Positions 7,048 to 29,470 of a DNA stretch of 37,453 bases are shown one piece after another. The notes beneath the pieces are model-generated. The model saw nothing but the letters and a program-made list of their open reading frames with translations, was not told the origin of the DNA and searched no databases. The DNA is from a virus (lineage: Duplodnaviria; Heunggongvirae; Uroviricota; Caudoviricetes; Peduoviridae): the IMG/VR virus record IMGVR_UViG_2563366824_000006; one strand, written 5' to 3'. The position numbers were made by a program, and so were the translations under genes. The number at the start of each line of letters is the position of its first letter. The stretch's first letter is position 1.

Positions 7048-8238
7048 TTAATTGCTGTTAACCGAAGTGACCAGATTTGCCAGGTATTTATCGGTAATAC
7101 GCTGGCGCAGGGTCAGGTTTTCAAGAGGAGGCACCGGTGTATAGTCGTAGTCGATATACAGTTTTCCGGCCTTGAGGGTTTCCGCATCGTTGGATTCTTC
7201 GCTGAACCAGCAGGTCGCATCCACGATATAGCCGTTTGTTTTCAGCTCACGGAATTTGGCATTGATGCCGTCAACGATGTCGCGAATCAGCGTTGCGGTG
7301 ATGGGCTTGTCCACCGCCCACATGTGCGCCTCAGCCATCGTGTCGGCCAGCACCTGCGCGGTGCGGGTGTAGTTTTCAAAGAGGAACAGCGGGTCATCAG
7401 AGCAGGTACGGTTACCCCAGAAGCGGAAACCGTCACGGCGAATCAGCGTTGTGACGCCTGACTCGTTAAGCAGGTCAGCATCGGTGCCGGACTCCTGCAA
7501 ATCCCAGAATACGGACGCGCTGATGCCGGTAACACCGTTCACCCCGACGTTGGACAGCGTTTTATGCCAGCCCTGCTCCTGGTCGATTTTAGCGCGCAGA
7601 CCCAGCGCACGGGCAGTGGCATACGCGGTGGCGGTGGTACTGGCGACCGTATCCCATGCGAGGAAATCCGGCCAGATGACCATCAGCTCACGCTGGCTGA
7701 AATTCTGGCGGTAGGCTTTCACCTCGGAAATGGTTTTACAGCCCCATGCGCTGATATACCCGAAAGCGCGCAGCTTCTGACAGACTGATGCCAGTGCAAC
7801 AGCCACCTCTTTGGTGTCCAGTCCCGGCACACCGAGAATACGCGGTTTAACGCCGGTTACCGACTCTGCCGCCAGCAGGGCTTTCAGTCCGGTGTACTGA
7901 CCATTTTCGTCGGTGGTGCCGATGATATTGGAAACGGTCTGCGCGAGTTTCGTTTCCTCGTCGTCGCCGGTGCCGTCTTCCACACGCACGACAACGGTGA
8001 CCGGTTTTGACTGGTCGGCGATGGCCTGCAACGATGCCGCCAGCGTGCCTTTTTTACCGGCCTTTGCAATTGCGCTCTGCACATTGGTAATCAGCACAGG
8101 TTTATTGAGGGGGAAGGTTTCCGCATCCGCATCGCTGGCCGTACAGACCATGCCGACAACGGCAGTGGATACGGTGGAAATGACGCGGGTGCCGTCGTTA
8201 ATCTCCAGCACCTGCACGCCATGATGATAGTCACTCAT
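7048..8238 (-). CDS. FI: Contractile tail sheath protein FI
   Basis: 396-aa ORF; position and size match P2 FI; GGAG Shine-Dalgarno about 9 nt upstream. Confidence 0.9.
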   Translation of the reverse strand: MSDYHHGVQVLEINDGTRVISTVSTAVVGMVCTASDADAETFPLNKPVLITNVQSAIAKAGKKGTLAASLQAIADQSKPVTVVVRVEDGTGDDEETKLAQTVSNIIGTTDENGQYTGLKALLAAESVTGVKPRILGVPGLDTKEVAVALASVCQKLRAFGYISAWGCKTISEVKAYRQNFSQRELMVIWPDFLAWDTVASTTATAYATARALGLRAKIDQEQGWHKTLSNVGVNGVTGISASVFWDLQESGTDADLLNESGVTTLIRRDGFRFWGNRTCSDDPLFLFENYTRTAQVLADTMAEAHMWAVDKPITATLIRDIVDGINAKFRELKTNGYIVDATCWFSEESNDAETLKAGKLYIDYDYTPVPPLENLTLRQRITDKYLANLVTSVNSN

Positions 8239-8330
8239 CCGTTTAACTCCGTGGTTAATGGGTGCAACTATTTTCTGTTGGGCAGTGCATGAGACGCTAT
8301 TTGACCTGGCTGGTCAGTGGATGAAACAAC
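8239..8330 (-). promoter_or_regulatory. Probable Ogr-dependent late promoter P_F region (upstream of FI)
   Basis: Position only, by analogy with P2 late-operon architecture; I found an imperfect dyad (TGG-N12-ACA around 8311..8328) but no perfect TGT-N12-ACA. Confidence 0.35.
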
Positions 8331-8361
8331 AGATAAAGAAAAGGCGGGCAATTCGCCCGCC
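8331..8361 (-). terminator. Intrinsic terminator downstream of the cargo gene, upstream of FI
   Basis: Stem ggcgggc / gcccgcc (8343-8349 / 8355-8361), followed on the minus strand by TTTTCTTTATCT. Confidence 0.55.
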
Positions 8362-8601
8362 TGTCCTGATTTGTACTCACTCATTTTCCGACTGACAATT
8401 TACATAGCCCAAACGCTATCAATTCTGACAGTCTGCTTTGAGCGAGGAGCAGACCTTCACGCTTTTCGCTGTTGAGTGACATGAATTATTAAAGAGCATT
8501 ATAAAACTTCACTTTTTCTAATTTCAATGCTTTATTAAAGTCAGCGACATTCAGGATTATCAATTCAATATTAATATACCATCAGCATTATATAAGAGGT
8601 A

Positions 8602-9606
8602 TTATGCTAACCATTTTGGATGCTCTTTATAAACATTATTAAACCACTCGGTCATTTCAGGTGAGTTCGTATCCTTTATCCAAGTTAACTCAAAGTCATC
8701 TCCCATAGATGCAAATATTGATTTCAATTGAGTTATGATTAAACCATAGTAAAATCCAAAAGTTTTTTCTTCATCCTCATTGACTAATGATTCAATATGA
8801 CAACTGAGAATAAATCGAACTCGTGCCGCCGTTGAGGGATGTGTCGATTGAAAATGTTCATGGGGTGATAAGCCATCAGAAAGTTTGAAGTAGCACAGTA
8901 TTAATAGCAATGAAAATGCAATTCCGCCTTCCTTGCTGCTATAAAAATCAAGCAAGTTATTAAGATAAGATGCCTTCTGATCAAATGCAGACTGTACATG
9001 TTTTTTTACAATATTAAGAGCAAAACCATCTGCAACTAATTCTCTTGCGTGGCTTGATATTATTTCTGCGCTATTGATTTTTTTATGTCCTAAAACATCA
9101 TCAAAGATAGTGTCAATAGATTGCTTTTTTGCTCGGTCGCCATGTTTATTAATGAAATGGCCTACTTCGTGACTAACTATAAACAGCATTAGACAATCAA
9201 GAATAAACATAAATAAGTGTGATTCGGACTCACTTTCCTCTCTTGTCTCATTGTTAAACCCAACAAATGGATTAGTAACGAGATGCAAGTCATAAAAGTT
9301 TAAATTAGTACTTTTCCCTGTTATCATCCCTGACCGAAAAATCAAGTCAGATAACTTACATAGTCTATCAAATGTGCCATAAGACATAAATATCAATTTT
9401 TCATCATAAATAATGCCGCATTGAAAATGTGAGTTGGTTGTAATGCAAAAATCCAGATCTAATTTTCGAACAGAGTCCATGTATTTACTAAAAAACGGCA
9501 GTACGAGACCATTATCTCTATCATTTATAAAATCATAGATAAGCCCCAATTGATTCTTTGAAAGAATTTCATTGATTTCATTAAGTTTTATTTCAAATCT
9601 ATCCAT
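8602..9606 (-). CDS. Cargo gene at the Z/fun position: putative zinc metallopeptidase with M48 (HtpX/Ste24)-like motifs and an N-terminal domain of about 135 aa of unknown function
   Basis: 334-aa ORF, AT-rich. Motifs read in the translation: HEVGH, then RELVADGFA (the ExxADxfA third-ligand motif of M48 peptidases), then STHPSTAARV (the THPxxxxR motif). AGAGGT Shine-Dalgarno upstream. No membrane helices evident, so probably soluble. Confidence 0.6.
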   Translation of the reverse strand: MDRFEIKLNEINEILSKNQLGLIYDFINDRDNGLVLPFFSKYMDSVRKLDLDFCITTNSHFQCGIIYDEKLIFMSYGTFDRLCKLSDLIFRSGMITGKSTNLNFYDLHLVTNPFVGFNNETREESESESHLFMFILDCLMLFIVSHEVGHFINKHGDRAKKQSIDTIFDDVLGHKKINSAEIISSHARELVADGFALNIVKKHVQSAFDQKASYLNNLLDFYSSKEGGIAFSLLLILCYFKLSDGLSPHEHFQSTHPSTAARVRFILSCHIESLVNEDEEKTFGFYYGLIITQLKSIFASMGDDFELTWIKDTNSPEMTEWFNNVYKEHPKWLA

Positions 9607-9760
9607 AATTAGAACCTCTTAATTAAAATTTTAAATAATCCGCTTAAGTAGCTATGGAGATGTAATTCTAATACTCAATCCACTCATTCAATGGAAAGAT
9701 TAGCATTACTTTAACCGCACTTTTGGACTTGACTTACTTCCCTTAAAGCTTCTGGGCACT

Positions 9761-9802
9761 ATGTTAGTAATGTCCGCTCTTCGCACGCAGCGGACATTGC
9801 TA
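9761..9802. repeat. Hairpin-containing repeat, copy 1 (15-17 bp stem, 10-nt loop)
   Basis: ttagtaatgtccgct (9763..9777) pairs with agcggacattgctaa (9788..9802) with one G-T wobble; the 42-nt segment matches 10859..10900 at 28 of 42 positions by my manual alignment. Confidence 0.6.
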
Positions 9803-9922
9803 ATAGCGGTCTATGTGAAACACGGGGAGTAGGTTAGTTTTAGCGTTAAACACAATAAGAGCACGATGAAGTATCAAAAAGGAAGCATTGCATAGATAAT
9901 TTAGGCAAAAACAGAGCTTAAA

Positions 9923-10774
9923 TTACATATCATTCGCTATCAATTCGGTTGAGAGAACCCTTGGAATCAAGCTACTTTTTGAACCATACTTTATATGCAG
10001 AAAGTCCATCATCTTTTCAACATCACTTTCATGCTCTACAATGACATATTTAATATCCTTATGTGAAAAGGGTAACCTGTCATCATCATAATATTCGTTA
10101 TATTTTCTCTTGCCATCTTGAGTTGATATATTTTTCGAAGCAGCGATCACTGGTTTTCCAATTGATTTTTCTATATCTGGAACAAATCGCCACTCCCTCT
10201 CATCTGCAAAAATATAGTTAGGTTTCTCCTGACCATTGCGTCGTTTCAAAGTTGCCTGGTAATTTTTCATATATCGCAAAGGATCTACAATTTTCTTGTA
10301 ACTAAGAATCGCCGAGTCATATTTCCGCTTTGCATTAGTTAATTGAGATGTTGTTCCTGAAGATTTTATTTCGTCCAAATGCTTTAATAACTTATTAACT
10401 TCTGCTTTTAAACGCCTAATCTCTAGATTATAATTATCAAAAACAGAAGAGTGCTTGGACATGTAAATTACTGGATTAAGTCCATTTTCGTTTGCCCAAT
10501 CTTTTGATAATCCTATGCCATAATGGCCATAACTTTCAGTATGCTGGGTAAGCTGTGTTAGCCTGATATCACAAAATGAAACCATCGGTATACCGAAATT
10601 TCTATTCGTGCTCTGGCCTTGTATAAACTCTCTAGCGAAAGAAATTCGAAAATAACTTGAGTCAAGTATCTCAAATAAGGTATCTAACTTTTCAGTAAAA
10701 TGAAACAAGGTCGTTGGGTATAAGCTACGCGACATAATGATCATCCATAATATGATGTATAAACTAAGTATCAT
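9923..10774 (-). CDS. Cargo gene at the Z/fun position: putative abortive-infection (Abi-like, possibly AbiGi-family) protein
   Basis: 283-aa ORF, AT-rich. N-terminal LFHFTEKLDTLFEIL ... GIPMVSFCDI ... YGHYGIGLSKDWANENGLNPVIY resembles Abi-family proteins as I remember them; family assignment unverified. True start may be an internal Met (ATG at 10744-10742 or 10735-10733), since the first 13 codons encode an odd hydrophobic peptide and lack a Shine-Dalgarno sequence. Confidence 0.5.
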   Translation of the reverse strand: MILSLYIILWMIIMSRSLYPTTLFHFTEKLDTLFEILDSSYFRISFAREFIQGQSTNRNFGIPMVSFCDIRLTQLTQHTESYGHYGIGLSKDWANENGLNPVIYMSKHSSVFDNYNLEIRRLKAEVNKLLKHLDEIKSSGTTSQLTNAKRKYDSAILSYKKIVDPLRYMKNYQATLKRRNGQEKPNYIFADEREWRFVPDIEKSIGKPVIAASKNISTQDGKRKYNEYYDDDRLPFSHKDIKYVIVEHESDVEKMMDFLHIKYGSKSSLIPRVLSTELIANDM

Positions 10775-16750: not shown

Positions 16751-17536
16751 ATGGTCAGCTATAATGTGACTAATGTGTGGGAGCTAATCGTCTTGTATCT
16801 TTTGGTCTTTGTAGTATTAGCATTTTTTAGCTTTGGTAAAAGTAACCTTATGAGGCTTATTGCACATTATTTCAAATTTGGATATTCAGATAAAAAATTA
16901 AAAAGACTGGACCGCGAGTGGCGCGACATTCAACTATTTAAAATAATTAACGGAATCAATGTATCAGGCATCAAAGATGTGAAAATGATACAGCAGGGGT
17001 TGATTGATGGAAAACTAAAAACATCGGATTTTTTCCTTACTCGCTTCTGGGGAGACATAACAGAACCGCCATGCATCACAAAAACAATGAGTGCAGTCCT
17101 GGCCGGAATTCTTTATATTACCTTCGCATGTTGCATACACAACGAGCAATCTGCCATAGTAGAGGATGCCATAGCCATACCATATAAAAATATGATGTAC
17201 CATGTTTATAATGACAAGGTTCTTTTGTTCTCCGACAATAAAACAGATAAGTTCTATAAAGCTTTTAGCATTGCCGATTGCAAGAGACTGCAGAACACTT
17301 TTGTAACAGACACACTTCCTGCAATCGCCTGCAATAAGCTCTTACAGCTAAACGAGGAGGACTCCAAATGGTTAAGTCAGGAGATTAAAGATAATAACAG
17401 CCACAGAAAAACATTATTAATAATATCCCTCGTCTATTTCACTTCAGGTCTGGTTATACTTCTGTCATATACAAAATTCCTTTACGCCAATAAAAAAGTT
17501 GTAGAATACAAATCATCAAATAAAAACCACTCATAA
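16751..17536 (+). CDS. Cargo gene at the orf30 position: membrane protein of unknown function (three predicted transmembrane helices)
   Basis: 261-aa ORF on the opposite strand to the flanking late genes; AT-rich and Lys/Asn/Ile-rich; hydrophobic segments near residues 10-28, 112-128 and 230-248; GGAG Shine-Dalgarno at 16741-16744. Confidence 0.6.
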   Translation: MVSYNVTNVWELIVLYLLVFVVLAFFSFGKSNLMRLIAHYFKFGYSDKKLKRLDREWRDIQLFKIINGINVSGIKDVKMIQQGLIDGKLKTSDFFLTRFWGDITEPPCITKTMSAVLAGILYITFACCIHNEQSAIVEDAIAIPYKNMMYHVYNDKVLLFSDNKTDKFYKAFSIADCKRLQNTFVTDTLPAIACNKLLQLNEEDSKWLSQEIKDNNSHRKTLLIISLVYFTSGLVILLSYTKFLYANKKVVEYKSSNKNHS

Positions 17537-17541
17537 TCCTC

Positions 17542-17578
17542 TAAACATTGAGCGACCAGCACAGCCGCTCAATGTTTA
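17542..17578. terminator. Strong stem-loop between convergent genes (cargo gene and S); candidate bidirectional terminator
   Basis: Perfect 13-bp stem taaacattgagcg / cgctcaatgttta (17542-17554 / 17566-17578) with 11-nt loop; T-rich tails on both strands. Confidence 0.55.
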
Positions 17579-17607
17579 ATTGCGCATCAGCCTCTGCCTG
17601 GATAAAA

Positions 17608-18060
17608 CTAACGCTCAAGGTGAGCCAGGATAATCTCTTCAATCATCTGTACATCCTCACCGGTGAAGCCGAGCAGAGGGCGCGCCGGATAATCAATTTT
17701 CTTACCGTCTTTCCGGTTTTCTTCCGACAGACCGAACTGATGCACACTGGCGATTTTCGGTGACTTCCCGCCGTAAAACTCCATTGATGCCTGCTCCGGG
17801 CTGGCGCGGATATGCAAAAAACGACTGGTGATAAGTTTCGCAAACATTTTTCGCTTAACACGACCGGTCTTTTTTCTGGCGCTCTGCTGCTGGCGTGGTG
17901 CGTAGGGTGTGCCGTCCGGGGCTTTCTGTGCCATCACCCGGCGCTGCTGACTCTGACGCAGACGTTTTGCCAGTTCGGCGCTCAGTCGCCGACGCCCTGA
18001 CGGTGACAGCGACTCAATCAGTCCGGTCAGCCGGTCTTCAAAACGCTTAAACTCATTCAT
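17608..18060 (-). CDS. S: Tail completion protein S
   Basis: 150-aa ORF; position and size match P2 gpS. Confidence 0.85.
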   Translation of the reverse strand: MNEFKRFEDRLTGLIESLSPSGRRRLSAELAKRLRQSQQRRVMAQKAPDGTPYAPRQQQSARKKTGRVKRKMFAKLITSRFLHIRASPEQASMEFYGGKSPKIASVHQFGLSEENRKDGKKIDYPARPLLGFTGEDVQMIEEIILAHLER

Positions 18061-18520
18061 CCCACTTGCTCACCAGTTCGCCATTGATATACAGCTCCAT
18101 CGGGCGGGTGACCGGCTCCGGCGGCGGGGGTTCCGGGATATTCTTCACATGCAGCGCGCCGTCCACCTCACTGACCAGCGTGCGCTCAGTCAGCATCAGG
18201 CTGATGCTGATATCAAAGCTGCTGTCATTGTTGATGTCTGCATAAAACGTGAAGCCCTTTTTCTGACCTTCGTCGGTGGTCATGATGTCGGGCTGATTTT
18301 CCCGCAGCCACGCCAGCACCGGCACGATGAGCAGGTCAAAATCACCGGTAAAGTCGGTCACAATGACATTGAGCGTGTAACGCTTTTCAAATGACAGCGA
18401 CGTCGCCAGTGTGGAGGCAATACTCCCGTTATCCACGAATATCCGCAGCATCTCGGGACTGGTTTTCAGCACCGTGACGGCATCAGTCAGCGCCCTGCGC
18501 AGGCTGTCGGGTTTGAGCAT
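18053..18520 (-). CDS. R: Tail completion protein R
   Basis: 155-aa ORF; position and size match P2 gpR. Confidence 0.85.
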   Translation of the reverse strand: MLKPDSLRRALTDAVTVLKTSPEMLRIFVDNGSIASTLATSLSFEKRYTLNVIVTDFTGDFDLLIVPVLAWLRENQPDIMTTDEGQKKGFTFYADINNDSSFDISISLMLTERTLVSEVDGALHVKNIPEPPPPEPVTRPMELYINGELVSKWDE

Positions 18521-18773
18521 CGTTTTCGTCCTGACAGTGTTTAATCATTTTTATCTGGCTGGCACAGCGTGCCAGCGCGTTCTCAAGCTGCCGGATATCG
18601 GCACTTAAATCACCGTTCGTCTCCGGGTCACTGCCCGGCATCGGGCAAAGGCTCACTTTCGGGCAGGCGTTGGGGACAATCACTGGCGTCGGTGCAGGCC
18701 GGGCGCTGGTGCAACCGGCGCACAGCATCAGGCAGGTCAGCACCGTACCAGCGGCGAAAATCTTCGTTTTCAT
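18483..18773 (-). CDS. lysC: LysC, Rz1-like outer-membrane lipoprotein (o-spanin), embedded out of frame in lysB and R
   Basis: Internal Met of ORF 18483..18890 gives MKTKIFAAGTVLTCLMLCAGC..., a signal peptide with lipobox-like Cys, and a Pro-rich product; overlaps lysB in another frame as in P2. Confidence 0.65.
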   Translation of the reverse strand: MKTKIFAAGTVLTCLMLCAGCTSARPAPTPVIVPNACPKVSLCPMPGSDPETNGDLSADIRQLENALARCASQIKMIKHCQDENDAQTRQPAQGAD

Positions 18774-19053
18774 TGAGTAACCTCGTGATGGTTTTCTCGC
18801 GCTGTGCTTCACGCTTCGCGGCGTTCTCCAGTTCCTGACGCAGTGCCACCTGCGCCAGCTCGTTTTTGTCTGCCCTGGTGAGGGCAACATGAAGCTGATT
18901 TTTCAGCATGGTGATGGTCGTCTGTTGTTCACTGGCGACGTTGTTCACCCTGTCCAGCGAGGCGCGCAGGCTGGCGTTTTCATGCTTCGCCAGAAACAGC
19001 CCCGCCACCGCCAGCGATAACAACACAACCATCACAATCATCAGCCTTGACAT
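18628..19053 (-). CDS. lysB: LysB, Rz-like inner-membrane spanin (i-spanin)
   Basis: 141-aa ORF with N-terminal transmembrane helix followed by coiled coil; P2 position. Confidence 0.8.
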   Translation of the reverse strand: MSRLMIVMVVLLSLAVAGLFLAKHENASLRASLDRVNNVASEQQTTITMLKNQLHVALTRADKNELAQVALRQELENAAKREAQREKTITRLLNENEDFRRWYGADLPDAVRRLHQRPACTDASDCPQRLPESEPLPDAGQ

Positions 19054-19466
19054 GGTCCCCGCCCCTCAAAACGCTGACAGCAGGCCGTACGTATCAGCCG
19101 GAATAACAGCGCCGCCACGAGATAAATCAGCGCGGTAAAAATCCACCCGGCAGCGACCAGCGAGATAAACGTCGCCACCATCACCACCAGACCCATCGCC
19201 CGTCTGCACCACGGCACCGGCTGCAAATACAGCGACGTGACAATCTTCACGGCCAGCGATTCCGGCGGCAGCTCCCGCCCGTAGCGTTCCAGCACATACT
19301 CAGTGGCATACACGCCGACACCACCGGCAACCACACAGATAACCGTCGCCAGAATCGCCCAGGCAGCGACAAAATTGACGGCCACGCTCTGCGGGTTAAT
19401 CAGGGACAGTGCCAGCATCAGCGCCAGCGACACGTTCAGCATCAGTGAAAGGAATAATTTCTTCAT
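19041..19466 (-). CDS. lysA: LysA, membrane protein of the lysis cassette
   Basis: 141-aa strongly hydrophobic ORF directly downstream of K, as in P2. Confidence 0.8.
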   Translation of the reverse strand: MKKLFLSLMLNVSLALMLALSLINPQSVAVNFVAAWAILATVICVVAGGVGVYATEYVLERYGRELPPESLAVKIVTSLYLQPVPWCRRAMGLVVMVATFISLVAAGWIFTALIYLVAALLFRLIRTACCQRFEGRGPCQG

Positions 19467-19480
19467 GGTGTTTACTCCGT

Positions 19481-19978
19481 TTAAGCCGGTACGCCGCCAG
19501 CGGTACGCCAGACGGTGACCAGTTTTTCCAGTGAATGCTCACGCTGACCGTAACCGGCTCCCGGCAGGGATGCCCAGATATTGCGACAGCGTGAAATGGC
19601 GCGCTCAATGCGTCCCGCCCGGATGTCATCCAGCGCACCGCGTTCACGGATCAACTGAATGGCAAGTCTGTCCTGTGACAACGGACTGAAATCCGGCAGG
19701 GCAAGCTGTTTGCGGTAGTGCGGCCAGAACAGGTAAAGCTGCTGATAGCGACCGGAGGCCGTGGATTTTTCACCGCGACGGTTAAACACCTTCGCCGGTC
19801 GGCCATGCGCGAACGGGTGGTCACTGTAGTCGGTGAAAATTTCCGGCTTTCCGTCCAGTCCGGTGACTATCACGTCATAGCCCCGGTTTTTCGTCAGCGG
19901 ATGATTCGCCGTCCCTTCGGACACGGCCAGCATGTCGAGAAAGGCGGCGATATTCTGATGCGTGTTAATAACCGGCAT
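19481..19978 (-). CDS. K: Endolysin K (phage lysozyme)
   Basis: 165-aa ORF; P2 position between Y and lysA. Confidence 0.85.
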   Translation of the reverse strand: MPVINTHQNIAAFLDMLAVSEGTANHPLTKNRGYDVIVTGLDGKPEIFTDYSDHPFAHGRPAKVFNRRGEKSTASGRYQQLYLFWPHYRKQLALPDFSPLSQDRLAIQLIRERGALDDIRAGRIERAISRCRNIWASLPGAGYGQREHSLEKLVTVWRTAGGVPA

Positions 19979-20259
19979 TACGGTTTCCCCCTGCCCTTAA
20001 AGCGGCGCTGAATGGCAATCTCAATCACCTGATAACCGGCGATACCCAGCATGGAGCCGATGCCGCACACCGCAGGCAGTGACAGGTCAGGAAACTGCAC
20101 CAGAACAACACCGGCAACCATCGAGACAAAACCACCGAGCAACATGCGCCCGATAAACAGACGCGGGGTGATGGGTTCACCACCGGCAAGCACCTTGCCG
20201 ACAACAATCAGCACCCCAATCATGAAAAGCGACAGGACGCTTTTTTCTTCTGCTGTCAT
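19978..20259 (-). CDS. Y: Holin Y
   Basis: 93-aa ORF with transmembrane helices and a charged C-terminus; P2 position. Confidence 0.85.
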   Translation of the reverse strand: MTAEEKSVLSLFMIGVLIVVGKVLAGGEPITPRLFIGRMLLGGFVSMVAGVVLVQFPDLSLPAVCGIGSMLGIAGYQVIEIAIQRRFKGRGKP

Positions 20260-20262
20260 GCG

Positions 20263-20466
20263 TTACTCCCACAGATTGACAGTTTCAGCCACGGGGGCGG
20301 TCTGAACGTCGGGCAGTTCGACGACGGTGCCGTGCGGCAGCACCGCACCCAGTTCAGCCAGTCCCGGATTTGCGGCGAGCACAGCCTCGACCACGCCCTC
20401 AGTGCGCCCGTAATACCGGACACAAATGGCGTCGAGCGTGTCGCCCTGTAGCGCAAAGGTCTTCAT
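20263..20466 (-). CDS. X: Tail protein X
   Basis: 67-aa product from the internal Met (MKTFALQGDTLDAICVRYYG...); the ORF-track N-terminal extension would overlap L. Confidence 0.8.
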   Translation of the reverse strand: MKTFALQGDTLDAICVRYYGRTEGVVEAVLAANPGLAELGAVLPHGTVVELPDVQTAPVAETVNLWE

Positions 20467-20975
20467 CAGATTTGACTCACGATGCAGCGCGGCTTGTCCT
20501 GGATGCGCGCCACTGCCCAGCGCATATCCCGCCATAGCTCATCAATGGTGCTGTCAATGCTGTCGGCCTTCTTGTCGCCTTTGGCACTGGCATCCACGCC
20601 GCGATAACGCTCATAAAGCGATGCGGTCGCCATCGCACACACGGCGCGCTCGTAGTAAAAAACTTTGATGCTTTCACCGTCGATGTCGTCCGCCGGGACG
20701 TCCGCCAGACGCGTAAAACCGGCAGCAATTTTCTGTTCGCGGTACTCGTACAGCTCCGCATTCGTCTCCGCCATGCCTGACTTGATGGCCTCACGCAGAC
20801 GGGCGGGGGCGACGGTCTGCTCAAGGCGCATACGTTCCCGGACGCGCTTCGGGTCGATATCGGGAAAAAAGAACGTGTTTTTAATCACCGGCTCGTCGCC
20901 TGCCGGTTGCGGGATGACCACCGTACCCTCACCGGACACGGGAGCCTCCTTTCGCGGAATAATCAGCGTCATCAT
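20466..20975 (-). CDS. L: Capsid completion protein L
   Basis: 169-aa product from the internal Met (MMTLIIPRKEAP...), consistent with P2 gpL length. Confidence 0.8.
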   Translation of the reverse strand: MMTLIIPRKEAPVSGEGTVVIPQPAGDEPVIKNTFFFPDIDPKRVRERMRLEQTVAPARLREAIKSGMAETNAELYEYREQKIAAGFTRLADVPADDIDGESIKVFYYERAVCAMATASLYERYRGVDASAKGDKKADSIDSTIDELWRDMRWAVARIQDKPRCIVSQI

Positions 20976-27262: not shown

Positions 27263-29470
27263 ATGAAATTAAAACTCAAAAACGTAACAAGCTATCATAA
27301 AGAATATTTTACTGAGTTAGATTTATCCAAAAAAATAAACATATTGTATGGACAAAATGGTTGTGGAAAATCTACCATATCAAATTATTTTTACAATCCT
27401 AAAGACACCGCCTATAAGGAATGTGTATGCGAACCCATCGATAATTATCGAACCCTAGTCTACAACTCAAAATATATAGAAGATAATTTTTATAATGCAA
27501 AAGAGCAAAAAGGTATATTTACCCTCAGTCAAAAAAATGCAGAAATTGAAAAAATACTATCTGAAAAAGAAGAGCTAAACAAATCACTAGCACATCAGCA
27601 TAAAGAAAAAAAAGAATTTATCGAAAAACTCCATGAAGCGAAAAACAAAAAAGAGCAAGAATGCATAAATTCCATATGGAATAAGACCAAAGACATAAGA
27701 AGTTCAGAATTAAAACAATTAATGAAAGGTCAAATAGGAAGCAAAGCCACTTTCTATTACCATCTAAAAAAGTATACTCCACAAACTGATATTGATATAA
27801 AATCATTAATACAATCTTATAGCAAACTTCTCGAGTTTAAAGGAAAAGAAATACCTCTGATAACTCCTTATAAAGGATATGTTTTATCTGAAGAAACTCA
27901 AAAAACATTATCCACACCAATTATTGACTCTAGCAACAGCTATTTATCTGAAGCAATAAAAGAGCTACAAAATATTGATTGGATTAAACAAGGCAAAGAG
28001 CTATATTTAAATGGAGAAATTTGTCCATTTTGCCAAAGGGACACAATAGATGATAATTTTATTAAAGCCATTGAATCTATCTTTGATGAAACATACTCAA
28101 GAAAAGTAGATCAAATACAACAAATAAAACTATCTTATGATAATGCCATTAAAAATCATCATGAAGAAATAAAGAGTAACATTTTATCATGTGAGGTGAT
28201 AAACCAAGACGAAAAAGATAAAAGCCTTTCATATGTTAAGGCATTAGAAACTATTGCAGAAAAAAACATCAAATTATTGGATAATAAAATAGAGAATCCA
28301 TCTATAAGCATTGTGCTGGAGTTTGAAAAGTCGATAGAGGAAAAACTATTAGAAGATATAGAACAATACAACAAAAAAATTAACGAGTTCAATGACAAAG
28401 TAAAAAGATTTAATAATAGCGAAATAGATATTCGCGAAAAGATGTGGGCAGCAATCAGAGACTTATGTAGCGCGGAATTTGAAATACTATCAGACTGCGA
28501 AAGAAACTTTCAAGAAAAATATGAAAACGCTGCATCCTTCATGCAGGAAATAAAAAGAAAAGAAGAGATCAACACAAATGAAATCAATGAACTAAGAAAT
28601 AAAACATCAAGTGTAGATGCAACAATAGATGCAATAAACTCACGACTTAAATTTCTTGGCATCTCTGGTTTTAGCATTGATAAACACGCCGAACTCAAAG
28701 ATAAGTATATAATATCCCGCGATGGAAACAATAGAAAACAAGATGTATATCGGTCATTAAGCGAAGGTGAAAAAACATTAATAACGTTTCTATATTTTTT
28801 AGAATGTTGCAAGGGTAAAACAAATGAAAATGATACTGATATGCGTGATAAACTCATAGTTATAGATGATCCTATATCAAGTTTATCTCAAAACTATGTT
28901 TTCGACATAGCATCCATGATCCATCATGACATAATTGAAAAAGGCATTTCATCAAAAATAATAATCCTCACCCATAATCTTTATTTCTTCCATGAGTTAA
29001 TAAAACTCGCCTCTAAAAAAGGAATAAATTTTAAACGTGACTACTTTCTTGGCAGAATAAACAAAAATGAATTTAGCACCATTAGTGCTATAGATAAAAA
29101 AAGTGTGCAAAATGAATACCAATCCCTTTGGCAAGTATTAAAAGATGCAAAAGAGAAAAAAATCAACAAAATAATAATCCCCAATATTATGAGAAATATA
29201 CTTGAGTATTACTTTGCATTTGTTCATAGAACTGACGCATTAGAGGCAAAGCTTACTGAATTAACAAATGATGAAAATAACAGCCATTTCCGTGCCTTTT
29301 ACAGATATATAAACAGAGGCTCTCACTCCGACGCAATAAACATAACAGATATGGGCGATATTGAACCTGAGAAATACTTAGAACTCTTGCACAAAATATT
29401 CAGAATGACTGGTGATGAGAAACATTACTTAACAATGATGGGTGAAGAAGAGGTAAATGTTACCGCTTAG
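27263..29470 (+). CDS. Cargo gene at the tin/old position: RloC/PrrC-like ABC-type ATPase with Rad50-like CxxC zinc hook and putative C-terminal HEPN/anticodon-nuclease domain
   Basis: 735-aa ORF, very AT-rich. Walker A GQNGCGKST (27347..27373); long coiled-coil region with CPFC (28022..28033) at its midpoint; signature-like LSEGEK; Walker B LIVIDDP; H-loop ILTHNL; C-terminal R-x3-E (MRNILEYY) and R-x6-H (RYINRGSH) motifs. Confidence 0.55.
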   Translation: MKLKLKNVTSYHKEYFTELDLSKKINILYGQNGCGKSTISNYFYNPKDTAYKECVCEPIDNYRTLVYNSKYIEDNFYNAKEQKGIFTLSQKNAEIEKILSEKEELNKSLAHQHKEKKEFIEKLHEAKNKKEQECINSIWNKTKDIRSSELKQLMKGQIGSKATFYYHLKKYTPQTDIDIKSLIQSYSKLLEFKGKEIPLITPYKGYVLSEETQKTLSTPIIDSSNSYLSEAIKELQNIDWIKQGKELYLNGEICPFCQRDTIDDNFIKAIESIFDETYSRKVDQIQQIKLSYDNAIKNHHEEIKSNILSCEVINQDEKDKSLSYVKALETIAEKNIKLLDNKIENPSISIVLEFEKSIEEKLLEDIEQYNKKINEFNDKVKRFNNSEIDIREKMWAAIRDLCSAEFEILSDCERNFQEKYENAASFMQEIKRKEEINTNEINELRNKTSSVDATIDAINSRLKFLGISGFSIDKHAELKDKYIISRDGNNRKQDVYRSLSEGEKTLITFLYFLECCKGKTNENDTDMRDKLIVIDDPISSLSQNYVFDIASMIHHDIIEKGISSKIIILTHNLYFFHELIKLASKKGINFKRDYFLGRINKNEFSTISAIDKKSVQNEYQSLWQVLKDAKEKKINKIIIPNIMRNILEYYFAFVHRTDALEAKLTELTNDENNSHFRAFYRYINRGSHSDAINITDMGDIEPEKYLELLHKIFRMTGDEKHYLTMMGEEEVNVTA

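Follow-up and report, generated by a model that had tools for sequence, protein, structure and literature searches.

Which protein, if any, is made from a reading frame that crosses the end of the phage lysis gene lysB out of register, and at which codon would its translation begin? This question was raised by a 135-aa (amino acid) open reading frame (ORF) found on the minus strand, at 18483..18890, of the Peduoviridae record IMGVR_UViG_2563366824_000006, a stretch of 37,453 nucleotides (nt) that is referred to here, at its full length, as the window. The frame of this ORF differs from those of both lysB and R (Table 1), and an earlier note made from the sequence had placed in it, within an overlap of lysB and R, the gene lysC, encoding an outer-membrane spanin subunit (o-spanin) of the Rz1 type nested in the gene of the inner-membrane subunit (i-spanin). 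It was observed that an internal Met codon at 18773 opens a product of 96 aa, which begins with MKTKIFAAGTVLTCLMLCAG followed by CTSARPAPTPVIVPNACPKVSLCPMPGSDPE and whose full sequence is MKTKIFAAGTVLTCLMLCAG followed by CTSARPAPTPVIVPNACPKVSLCPMPGSDPETNGDLSADIRQLENALARCASQIKMIKHCQDENDAQTRQPAQGAD. The results altogether indicated that lysB and lysC almost certainly constitute a two-component spanin pair of the P2 type, in which lysC is started independently inside lysB at 18773.

Identity and layout of lysC

The 96-aa product matched the NCBIfam model NF038368, 'Rz1-like lysis system protein LysC', with 126.4 bits (cutoff 27) over all 85 profile positions, the Pfam model PF23793 with 64.3 bits (cutoff 27), and phrog_456 with 108 bits. 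PF23793 (LysC) in Pfam and NF038368 in NCBIfam were the sole hits at E ≤ 0.01, and no match to Rz1 was obtained in Pfam or NCBIfam at this threshold. The earlier note had suggested an alignment to P2 LysC as a check, and this alignment revealed 92 of 96 identical residues (96%) with the P2 protein (AAM83596), an equal length and a matching position with respect to lysB and R, while the lysB-lysC DNA was 98% identical to that of P2. Judged by these comparisons, lysC is the orthologue of the P2 LysC gene. Its partner was recognized in the same way, since LysB reached 171.5 bits against TIGR03495 phage_LysB (cutoff 92.75) and 204 bits against phrog_89, an Rz-like spanin family, and was identical to P2 LysB at 135 of 141 residues. 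The best 19-aa hydrophobic window of LysB, residues 4-22 with a mean Kyte-Doolittle hydropathy of 2.89, corresponded to a single N-terminal transmembrane domain, and its periplasmic part carried Cys120, Cys126 and a Pro-rich C-terminus.

For comparison, 80 loci with a LysC relative (58-97% aa identity) were collected from one-genome-per-species bacterial assemblies. The counts of starts, Shine-Dalgarno (SD) sequences and lipoboxes refer to 76 usable loci, all from Enterobacterales genomes, and the nucleotide alignment comprised 75 loci that were 57-97% identical to the window, with a median of 66%.

The lysC frame is +1 relative to lysB, and along the gene 146 nt are shared with lysB, 107 nt belong to lysC alone and 38 nt are shared with R. 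The lysB/R overlap proposed earlier does not exist, as these two genes do not overlap each other and are separated by a 107-nt gap that lysC bridges. Because it bridges this gap and extends 146 nt into lysB and 38 nt into R, lysC is to be classified as 'overlapped' and not as 'embedded', the latter being the arrangement of lambda Rz1. In the window, lysC has 146 nt within lysB and 145 nt past the lysB stop, and the overlapped architecture was likewise found in 76/76 loci. Therefore, of the proposal that an o-spanin gene is nested in an i-spanin gene, the identities of both proteins were sustained by the family models and the embedding was not.

Translation from an internal start

Across the alignment, the codon position with the highest variation passed from the lysB frame to that of lysC and then to that of R, each change coinciding exactly with a gene border. 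Before the lysC ATG, lysB position 3 was the most variable, with a diversity of 0.537 versus 0.379 and 0.308 at positions 1 and 2, and all three positions were damped where lysB and lysC share 146 nt (0.252/0.132/0.221), the lysB wobble diversity falling from 0.537 to 0.221 (Mann-Whitney p = 7e-14). The wobble diversity of lysC itself was 0.252 in this overlap versus 0.449 in the lysC-only stretch, where lysC positions 1/2/3 varied at 0.204/0.124/0.449 (p = 1.4e-7). From the start of R on, R position 3 was the most variable (0.459 in the 38-nt lysC/R overlap), and this R-frame variation agrees with the poorly conserved tail of LysC. By this comparative measure, the lysC frame is under purifying selection, and the locus is a clean example for teaching how overlapping genes show up in the variation of codon positions.

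The signals around the internal start were also preserved. The hexamer at -12..-7 of the lysC ATG was CGAGGT or CGAGGC in 57/76 loci and carried AAGG or GGAG variants in 13 more, which brings the loci with an SD sequence to about 70 of 76, and the same GAGGT is listed for P2 lysC in SpaninDB (Kongari et al. 2018). Sequence inspection disclosed no SD sequence before the ATG at 18890 and none before the Met16 ATG at 18728. The homologous lysC start was ATG in 75 loci and a GVG-type GTG in one, always in the +1 frame relative to lysB, with a lysB/lysC overlap of 146-176 nt. Together with the codon-position pattern, these observations constitute direct evolutionary evidence that translation of the lysC frame begins near 18773, and not at 18890.

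It could be argued that the out-of-frame ORF is merely an open frame left by chance and yields no protein, since G+C-rich coding DNA often contains long alternative-frame ORFs and several were listed around this region. However, even where nucleotide identity was as low as 57%, this frame had remained open, with an unchanged length of 96 codons in 66/76 loci, curated family models were matched, and the variation was damped in the overlap and concentrated at the lysC third position beyond it; the comparative data had already refuted a chance ORF, which retains practically no probability. The full 135-aa ORF from the ATG at 18890 would have in its favour that it is the longest in its frame and that in 25/76 loci the lysC frame extended upstream for 39 codons or more without a stop. 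Against it, besides the missing SD sequence, an in-frame stop was found 0-4 codons upstream of the homologous lysC ATG in 37/76 loci, which places the 39-codon extension outside the conserved protein. Over the extension (18774..18890), the diversity at lysC-frame positions was 0.294/0.570/0.342, corresponding to the lysB wobble pattern alone. Moreover, the Arg/Trp-rich extension would bury the signal peptide, and the family models leave it uncovered, the NF038368 match starting at residue 43 of the 135-aa ORF, that is, at residue 4 of the 96-aa form. The suspicion that ORF calling based on length had produced a spurious N-terminal extension was confirmed by the upstream stops and by the lysB-like variation, and it is extremely unlikely that the 135-aa ORF is the real product.

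A third model is the 81-aa form, translated from Met16, which is annotated in the source genome and in most NCBI-named LysC entries found among the database homologues. Such a product would begin with MLCAGC, without the charged n-region and with nearly all of the hydrophobic h-region missing, so that export and lipidation would not be possible. This model also lacks an SD sequence before 18728, and 13/76 loci had Leu or Thr as residue 16, while Met1 was conserved together with its SD sequence. In addition, the NF038368 profile aligns upstream of Met16, from residue 4 of the 96-aa form, and the 96-aa model is the one used by both the P2 GenBank record and SpaninDB (Kongari et al. 2018). That the RefSeq start is right is therefore very improbable, and the recurrence of the 81-aa length across NCBI-named LysC homologues suggests a systematic start-site error. 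Among the 135-, 96- and 81-aa models, the data, which derive from sequence comparison, support only the 96-aa one.

A LysB-LysC frameshift fusion was also considered as the source of LysC and rejected, as the conserved SD sequence, the ATG and a complete signal peptide fit only independent initiation. It was further observed that three database proteins, P0107, P0010 and P0111, are chimeras of the LysB and LysC frames that switch within the overlap (for example, ...AAGYGAELPDAVRRLHQRPACTDASDCPQRL...GSDPQTNGDL). These chimeric 'LysC' entries are isolated and probably stem from miscalled genes or frameshift errors in their assemblies.

The value of these results lies in annotation, considering that three models (135, 96 and 81 aa) compete for the lysC ORF. 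With most of the signal peptide cut off in the 81-aa form, automated searches for lipoproteins or spanins in 81-aa RefSeq records will miss LysC.

Lipoprotein features and proposed function of LysC

The 96-aa product carried the elements of a lipoprotein signal, with an n-region MKTK (+2), a hydrophobic core of 13 residues whose mean Kyte-Doolittle hydropathy was 2.24, and Cys21, and Pro accounted for 8 of the first 31 mature residues; the description of a short Pro-rich protein with a signal peptide in the second frame thus held. The net charge of the first six residues ranged from +1 to +3 in 76/76 loci. Cys21 was found in 76/76 loci, while Cys18 was replaced by Ser in seven and by Leu in one, and since Cys18 is replaceable and Cys21 is not, the latter is the likely acylation site. 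The lipobox read LCAGC in 43 loci, LCVGC in 13, LCAAC in 7, LSAGC in 7, LCVAC in 3, LCVSC in 2 and TLSGC in 1. At position +2, next to the putatively acylated Cys, the absence of Asp is the established rule for sorting to the outer membrane by the Lol pathway. In the window, as in 76/76 loci, this position was occupied by Thr, and because it is Thr and not Asp, sorting of LysC to the outer membrane is implied.

Mature LysC has 76 aa. Periplasmic cysteines were present in both partners, at positions 37, 43, 70 and 80 of LysC in addition to the two of LysB mentioned above, and among relatives C70 was invariant and C37, C43 and C80 nearly so; such cysteines would be available to form disulfides between molecules. 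In the AlphaFold2 model of LysC, which was of moderate confidence (mean predicted local distance difference test score, pLDDT, of 66.7), the Pro-rich residues 21-50 had no secondary structure and residues 56-89 formed a helix with a pLDDT of about 75-90. A search of the Protein Data Bank returned no solved structure of a relative, the best E-value being a meaningless 0.13.

In the two-component spanin model, an inner-membrane and an outer-membrane subunit join in the periplasm, and the loss of the cell wall frees them for membrane fusion (Kongari et al. 2018 and the works they cite). Applied to the window, a ribosome would start separately within lysB, in the +1 frame, directed by the GAGG located 7 nt before the ATG at 18773, and produce the 96-aa prolipoprotein, from which signal peptidase II would remove the signal peptide just ahead of Cys21. 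In mature LysC, an extended Pro-rich linker would lead into a C-terminal helix, with four Cys on the periplasmic side. LysB, anchored in the inner membrane, and LysC, anchored by its lipid in the outer one, would bind through their periplasmic ends, spanning the periplasm through the peptidoglycan, and once holin Y and endolysin K had removed the peptidoglycan, these complexes would fuse or disrupt the outer membrane, releasing the phage. Lipidation, localisation, complex formation and membrane fusion are proposed here by analogy, from the literature on lambda Rz/Rz1 and P2. Markov and colleagues, in 2004, reportedly complemented lambda Rz/Rz1 nulls with P2 lysB and lysC.

Some points weigh against this reading. 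LCAG/C fails PROSITE PS51257 as well as the classic [LVI][ASTVI][GAS]C pattern on the 96-aa product, because a Cys occupies position -3; consequently, of the lipobox-like Cys announced in the earlier note, the Cys itself proved invariant and the fit to canonical lipobox patterns was lacking. This failure was not taken as a refutation, since the same is recorded for P2 LysC, LipoP calls the P2 site and Cys21 is invariant; being shared with P2, it does not set the product apart from the family. For P2 LysC, SpaninDB states that 'LipoP server finds cleavage site at 20 and 17... No hit by Prosite' and lists the lipobox LCAG, four periplasmic Cys and the architecture 'ovl' (Kongari et al. 2018). 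Over residues 1-24, P2 LysC and the LysC of the window differ by R2K only. The assignment of cleavage to the bond between residues 20 and 21 would thus depend on conservation and on the LipoP result published for P2, and the conservation of lysC codons 1-20 could, in turn, owe much to the overlapping lysB frame. Finally, residue 25 of LysC (18699..18701, minus strand) is Arg in the window, where P2 has Pro, the first proline of the mature P2 protein, at a site reported for the gor mutations.

According to a published source, gor lysis-timing mutations map to the first two prolines of P2 LysC. R25 was common in natural homologues, including several abundant LysC clusters, and for this reason it most likely represents neutral variation, as judged from the homologues. 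A different possibility, which seems improbable, is that Pro25/Arg25, the conserved Cys at -3 and the second LipoP site between residues 17 and 18 would mark lysis-timing-tuning alleles or alternative processing forms. If this were true, the o-spanins of the P2 family would not be interchangeable fusion subunits.

A regulatory role has also been attached to this stretch. The P2 record (AF063097) describes lysC as 'non-essential; regulation of lysis' and annotates inside it a 'putative transcription attenuator', an 8-bp hairpin that is present in the window at 18558..18576 (minus strand) as GCTGGCAC-GCT-GTGCCAGC, and it could be supposed that LysC is mainly a regulator of lysis timing, or that the stretch is a transcription attenuator, rather than the coding region of an outer-membrane fusion subunit. 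However, the conserved elements were protein-level features, namely the signal peptide, Cys21 and the helix, and an effect on timing would not conflict with a role as a spanin. As for the attenuator, the hairpin was followed by no T-run, and all eight pairs were kept in just 4/75 loci, the nearest relatives only, with no compensatory changes, so that it was rejected as a conserved RNA element. A promoter and terminator scan of 17300-20700 gave counts not above those of shuffled sequence, with nothing at the start of lysC or at the 'attenuator' of P2, and no terminator site was called at the hairpin. Such a regulator or attenuator is, on balance, very unlikely.

Prophage context and comparison with known spanins

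A 3.2-kb query covering the locus (17400-20600) was 100% identical to E. coli O166:H15 strain JNE21-009 (NZ_AP041814.1), and about 1,680 further E. coli records matched it, mostly at 95-99%. Phage P2 and its relatives (Wphi, fiAA91-ss and P2-like Yersinia phages) matched the locus at 96-97%. According to the RefSeq annotation of NZ_AP041814.1, the 37.4-kb stretch is a complete P2-like prophage situated between trhP and yegR/yegS, with its late genes on the minus strand, and the pair under study bears the names lysB and lysC on this matching E. coli chromosome. Both genes belong to a lysis cassette, as holin Y, endolysin K and lysA are found directly upstream of lysB/lysC on the same strand (Table 1).

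Other genes of the prophage were noted in passing. The gene at 16751..17536 (plus strand) is a homologue of P2 orf30 (unknown function, phrog_2407), with ends that looked hydrophobic by eye. Its product was 80% identical to P2 Orf30 versus about 96% for LysB and LysC, which indicates faster divergence than in its neighbours. Two cargo genes occupy the P2 Z/fun position, flanked by the genes for tail-fibre assembly and for the tail sheath (8602..10735, minus strand): one encodes an M48-family metalloprotease and the other an AbiGi-like protein (PADLOC AbiGi, 141 bits), likely an anti-phage defence cargo. In the interval between the portal and the replication gene, which is the P2 old/tin position, an intact 735-aa ORF (27263..29470, plus strand) gave a full-length match of 845 bits to PDC-S06, a candidate defence family of PADLOC, although this gene is flagged in RefSeq as a frameshifted pseudogene.

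Table 1. Coordinates of the lysis genes, of lysC and its parts, and of the adjoining genes in the window.
Feature	Position	Strand	Basis or remark
Y, holin	19978..20259	-	PF04550 holin, 143.6 bits; P2 and RefSeq annotations
K, endolysin	19481..19978	-	P2 and RefSeq annotations
lysA	19041..19466	-	ORF list; P2 and RefSeq annotations; phrog_162
lysB, i-spanin, 141 aa	18628..19053	-	TIGR03495 phage_LysB; phrog_89; identity to P2 LysB
LysB transmembrane segment, residues 4-22, LMIVMVVLLSLAVAGLFLA	18988..19044	-	Hydropathy scan
Spurious 39-codon N-terminal extension of lysC, lysB coding only	18774..18890	-	No SD sequence; upstream stops; lysB wobble pattern
lysC SD sequence GAGG, 7 nt before the ATG, within lysB codons	18781..18784	-	Sequence; kept in relatives
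lysC, o-spanin (Rz1-like outer-membrane lipoprotein precursor), 96 aa and stop	18483..18773	-	Family models; identity to P2 LysC; P2 geometry; coding-type variation
Double-coding stretch, 146 nt: lysB C-terminus with LysC signal peptide and Pro-rich linker	18628..18773	-	
LysC signal peptide, residues 1-20 (MKTK / IFAAGTVLTCLML / CAG), non-canonical lipobox L-C-A-G at its end	18714..18773	-	
Met16 codon, RefSeq/PGAP start (coding sequence 18483..18728, 81 aa)	18726..18728	-	RefSeq annotation; judged too short
Cys21 codon, putative lipidation site and first mature residue; Thr next, not Asp	18711..18713	-	
LysC-only stretch, 107 nt: conserved TNGDLSADI motif and start of the C-terminal helix	18521..18627	-	
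Overlap of the 3' end of lysC with the beginning of R, 38 nt	18483..18520	-	Variation follows the R frame
R, tail completion/terminator gene	18053..18520	-	PF06891 P2_Phage_GpR, 153 bits; P2 annotation
S	17608..18060	-	ORF list

The lysB/lysC pair resembles lambda Rz/Rz1 in that the gene of a small Pro-rich outer-membrane lipoprotein lies in the +1 frame of the inner-membrane subunit gene, downstream of the holin and endolysin genes, and the same function is presumed by analogy. It differs from lambda in that Rz1 is wholly contained in Rz, whereas lysC passes the lysB stop into R. The o-spanins themselves also differ, as mature Rz1 has about 40 aa, one Cys and no structure, and mature LysC, with 76 aa, a predicted C-terminal helix and four periplasmic Cys, is larger.

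The LysB/LysC pairs of Fels-2, KS14, KL3 and HP1/HP2 share with that of the window the overlapped architecture, a signal peptidase II site near residues 20/21, the conserved NGDL motif and several periplasmic Cys, although they are more distant in sequence. Some of these P2-like relatives have a canonical lipobox (LSGC in Fels-2 and LLAC in HP2), and in KS14 and KL3 the overlap with R is shorter (8 bp).

The closest known case is P2 itself, whose lysB/lysC pair is presented in publications as the paradigm of the overlapped architecture. In P2 (AF063097), lysB is found at 7922..8347, lysC at 8202..8492 (96 aa) and R at 8455..8922, with the same lengths and overlaps as here. The gene order Y-K-lysA-lysB-lysC-R-S, the protein lengths of 141 and 96 aa, the 146-nt and 38-nt overlaps, the SD sequence and the LCAG/C lipobox are all shared, and the aa identity is 96% for both proteins. 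The differences amount to four substitutions in LysC (R2K, P25R, Q51E and V74I), six in LysB, and the state of the window as a resident prophage between trhP and yegR. Nothing scientifically new is therefore claimed for this copy, 96% identical to a textbook overlapped spanin: the lysB/lysC pair of this prophage is real, ordinary and already known, and does not depart from the known P2 case.

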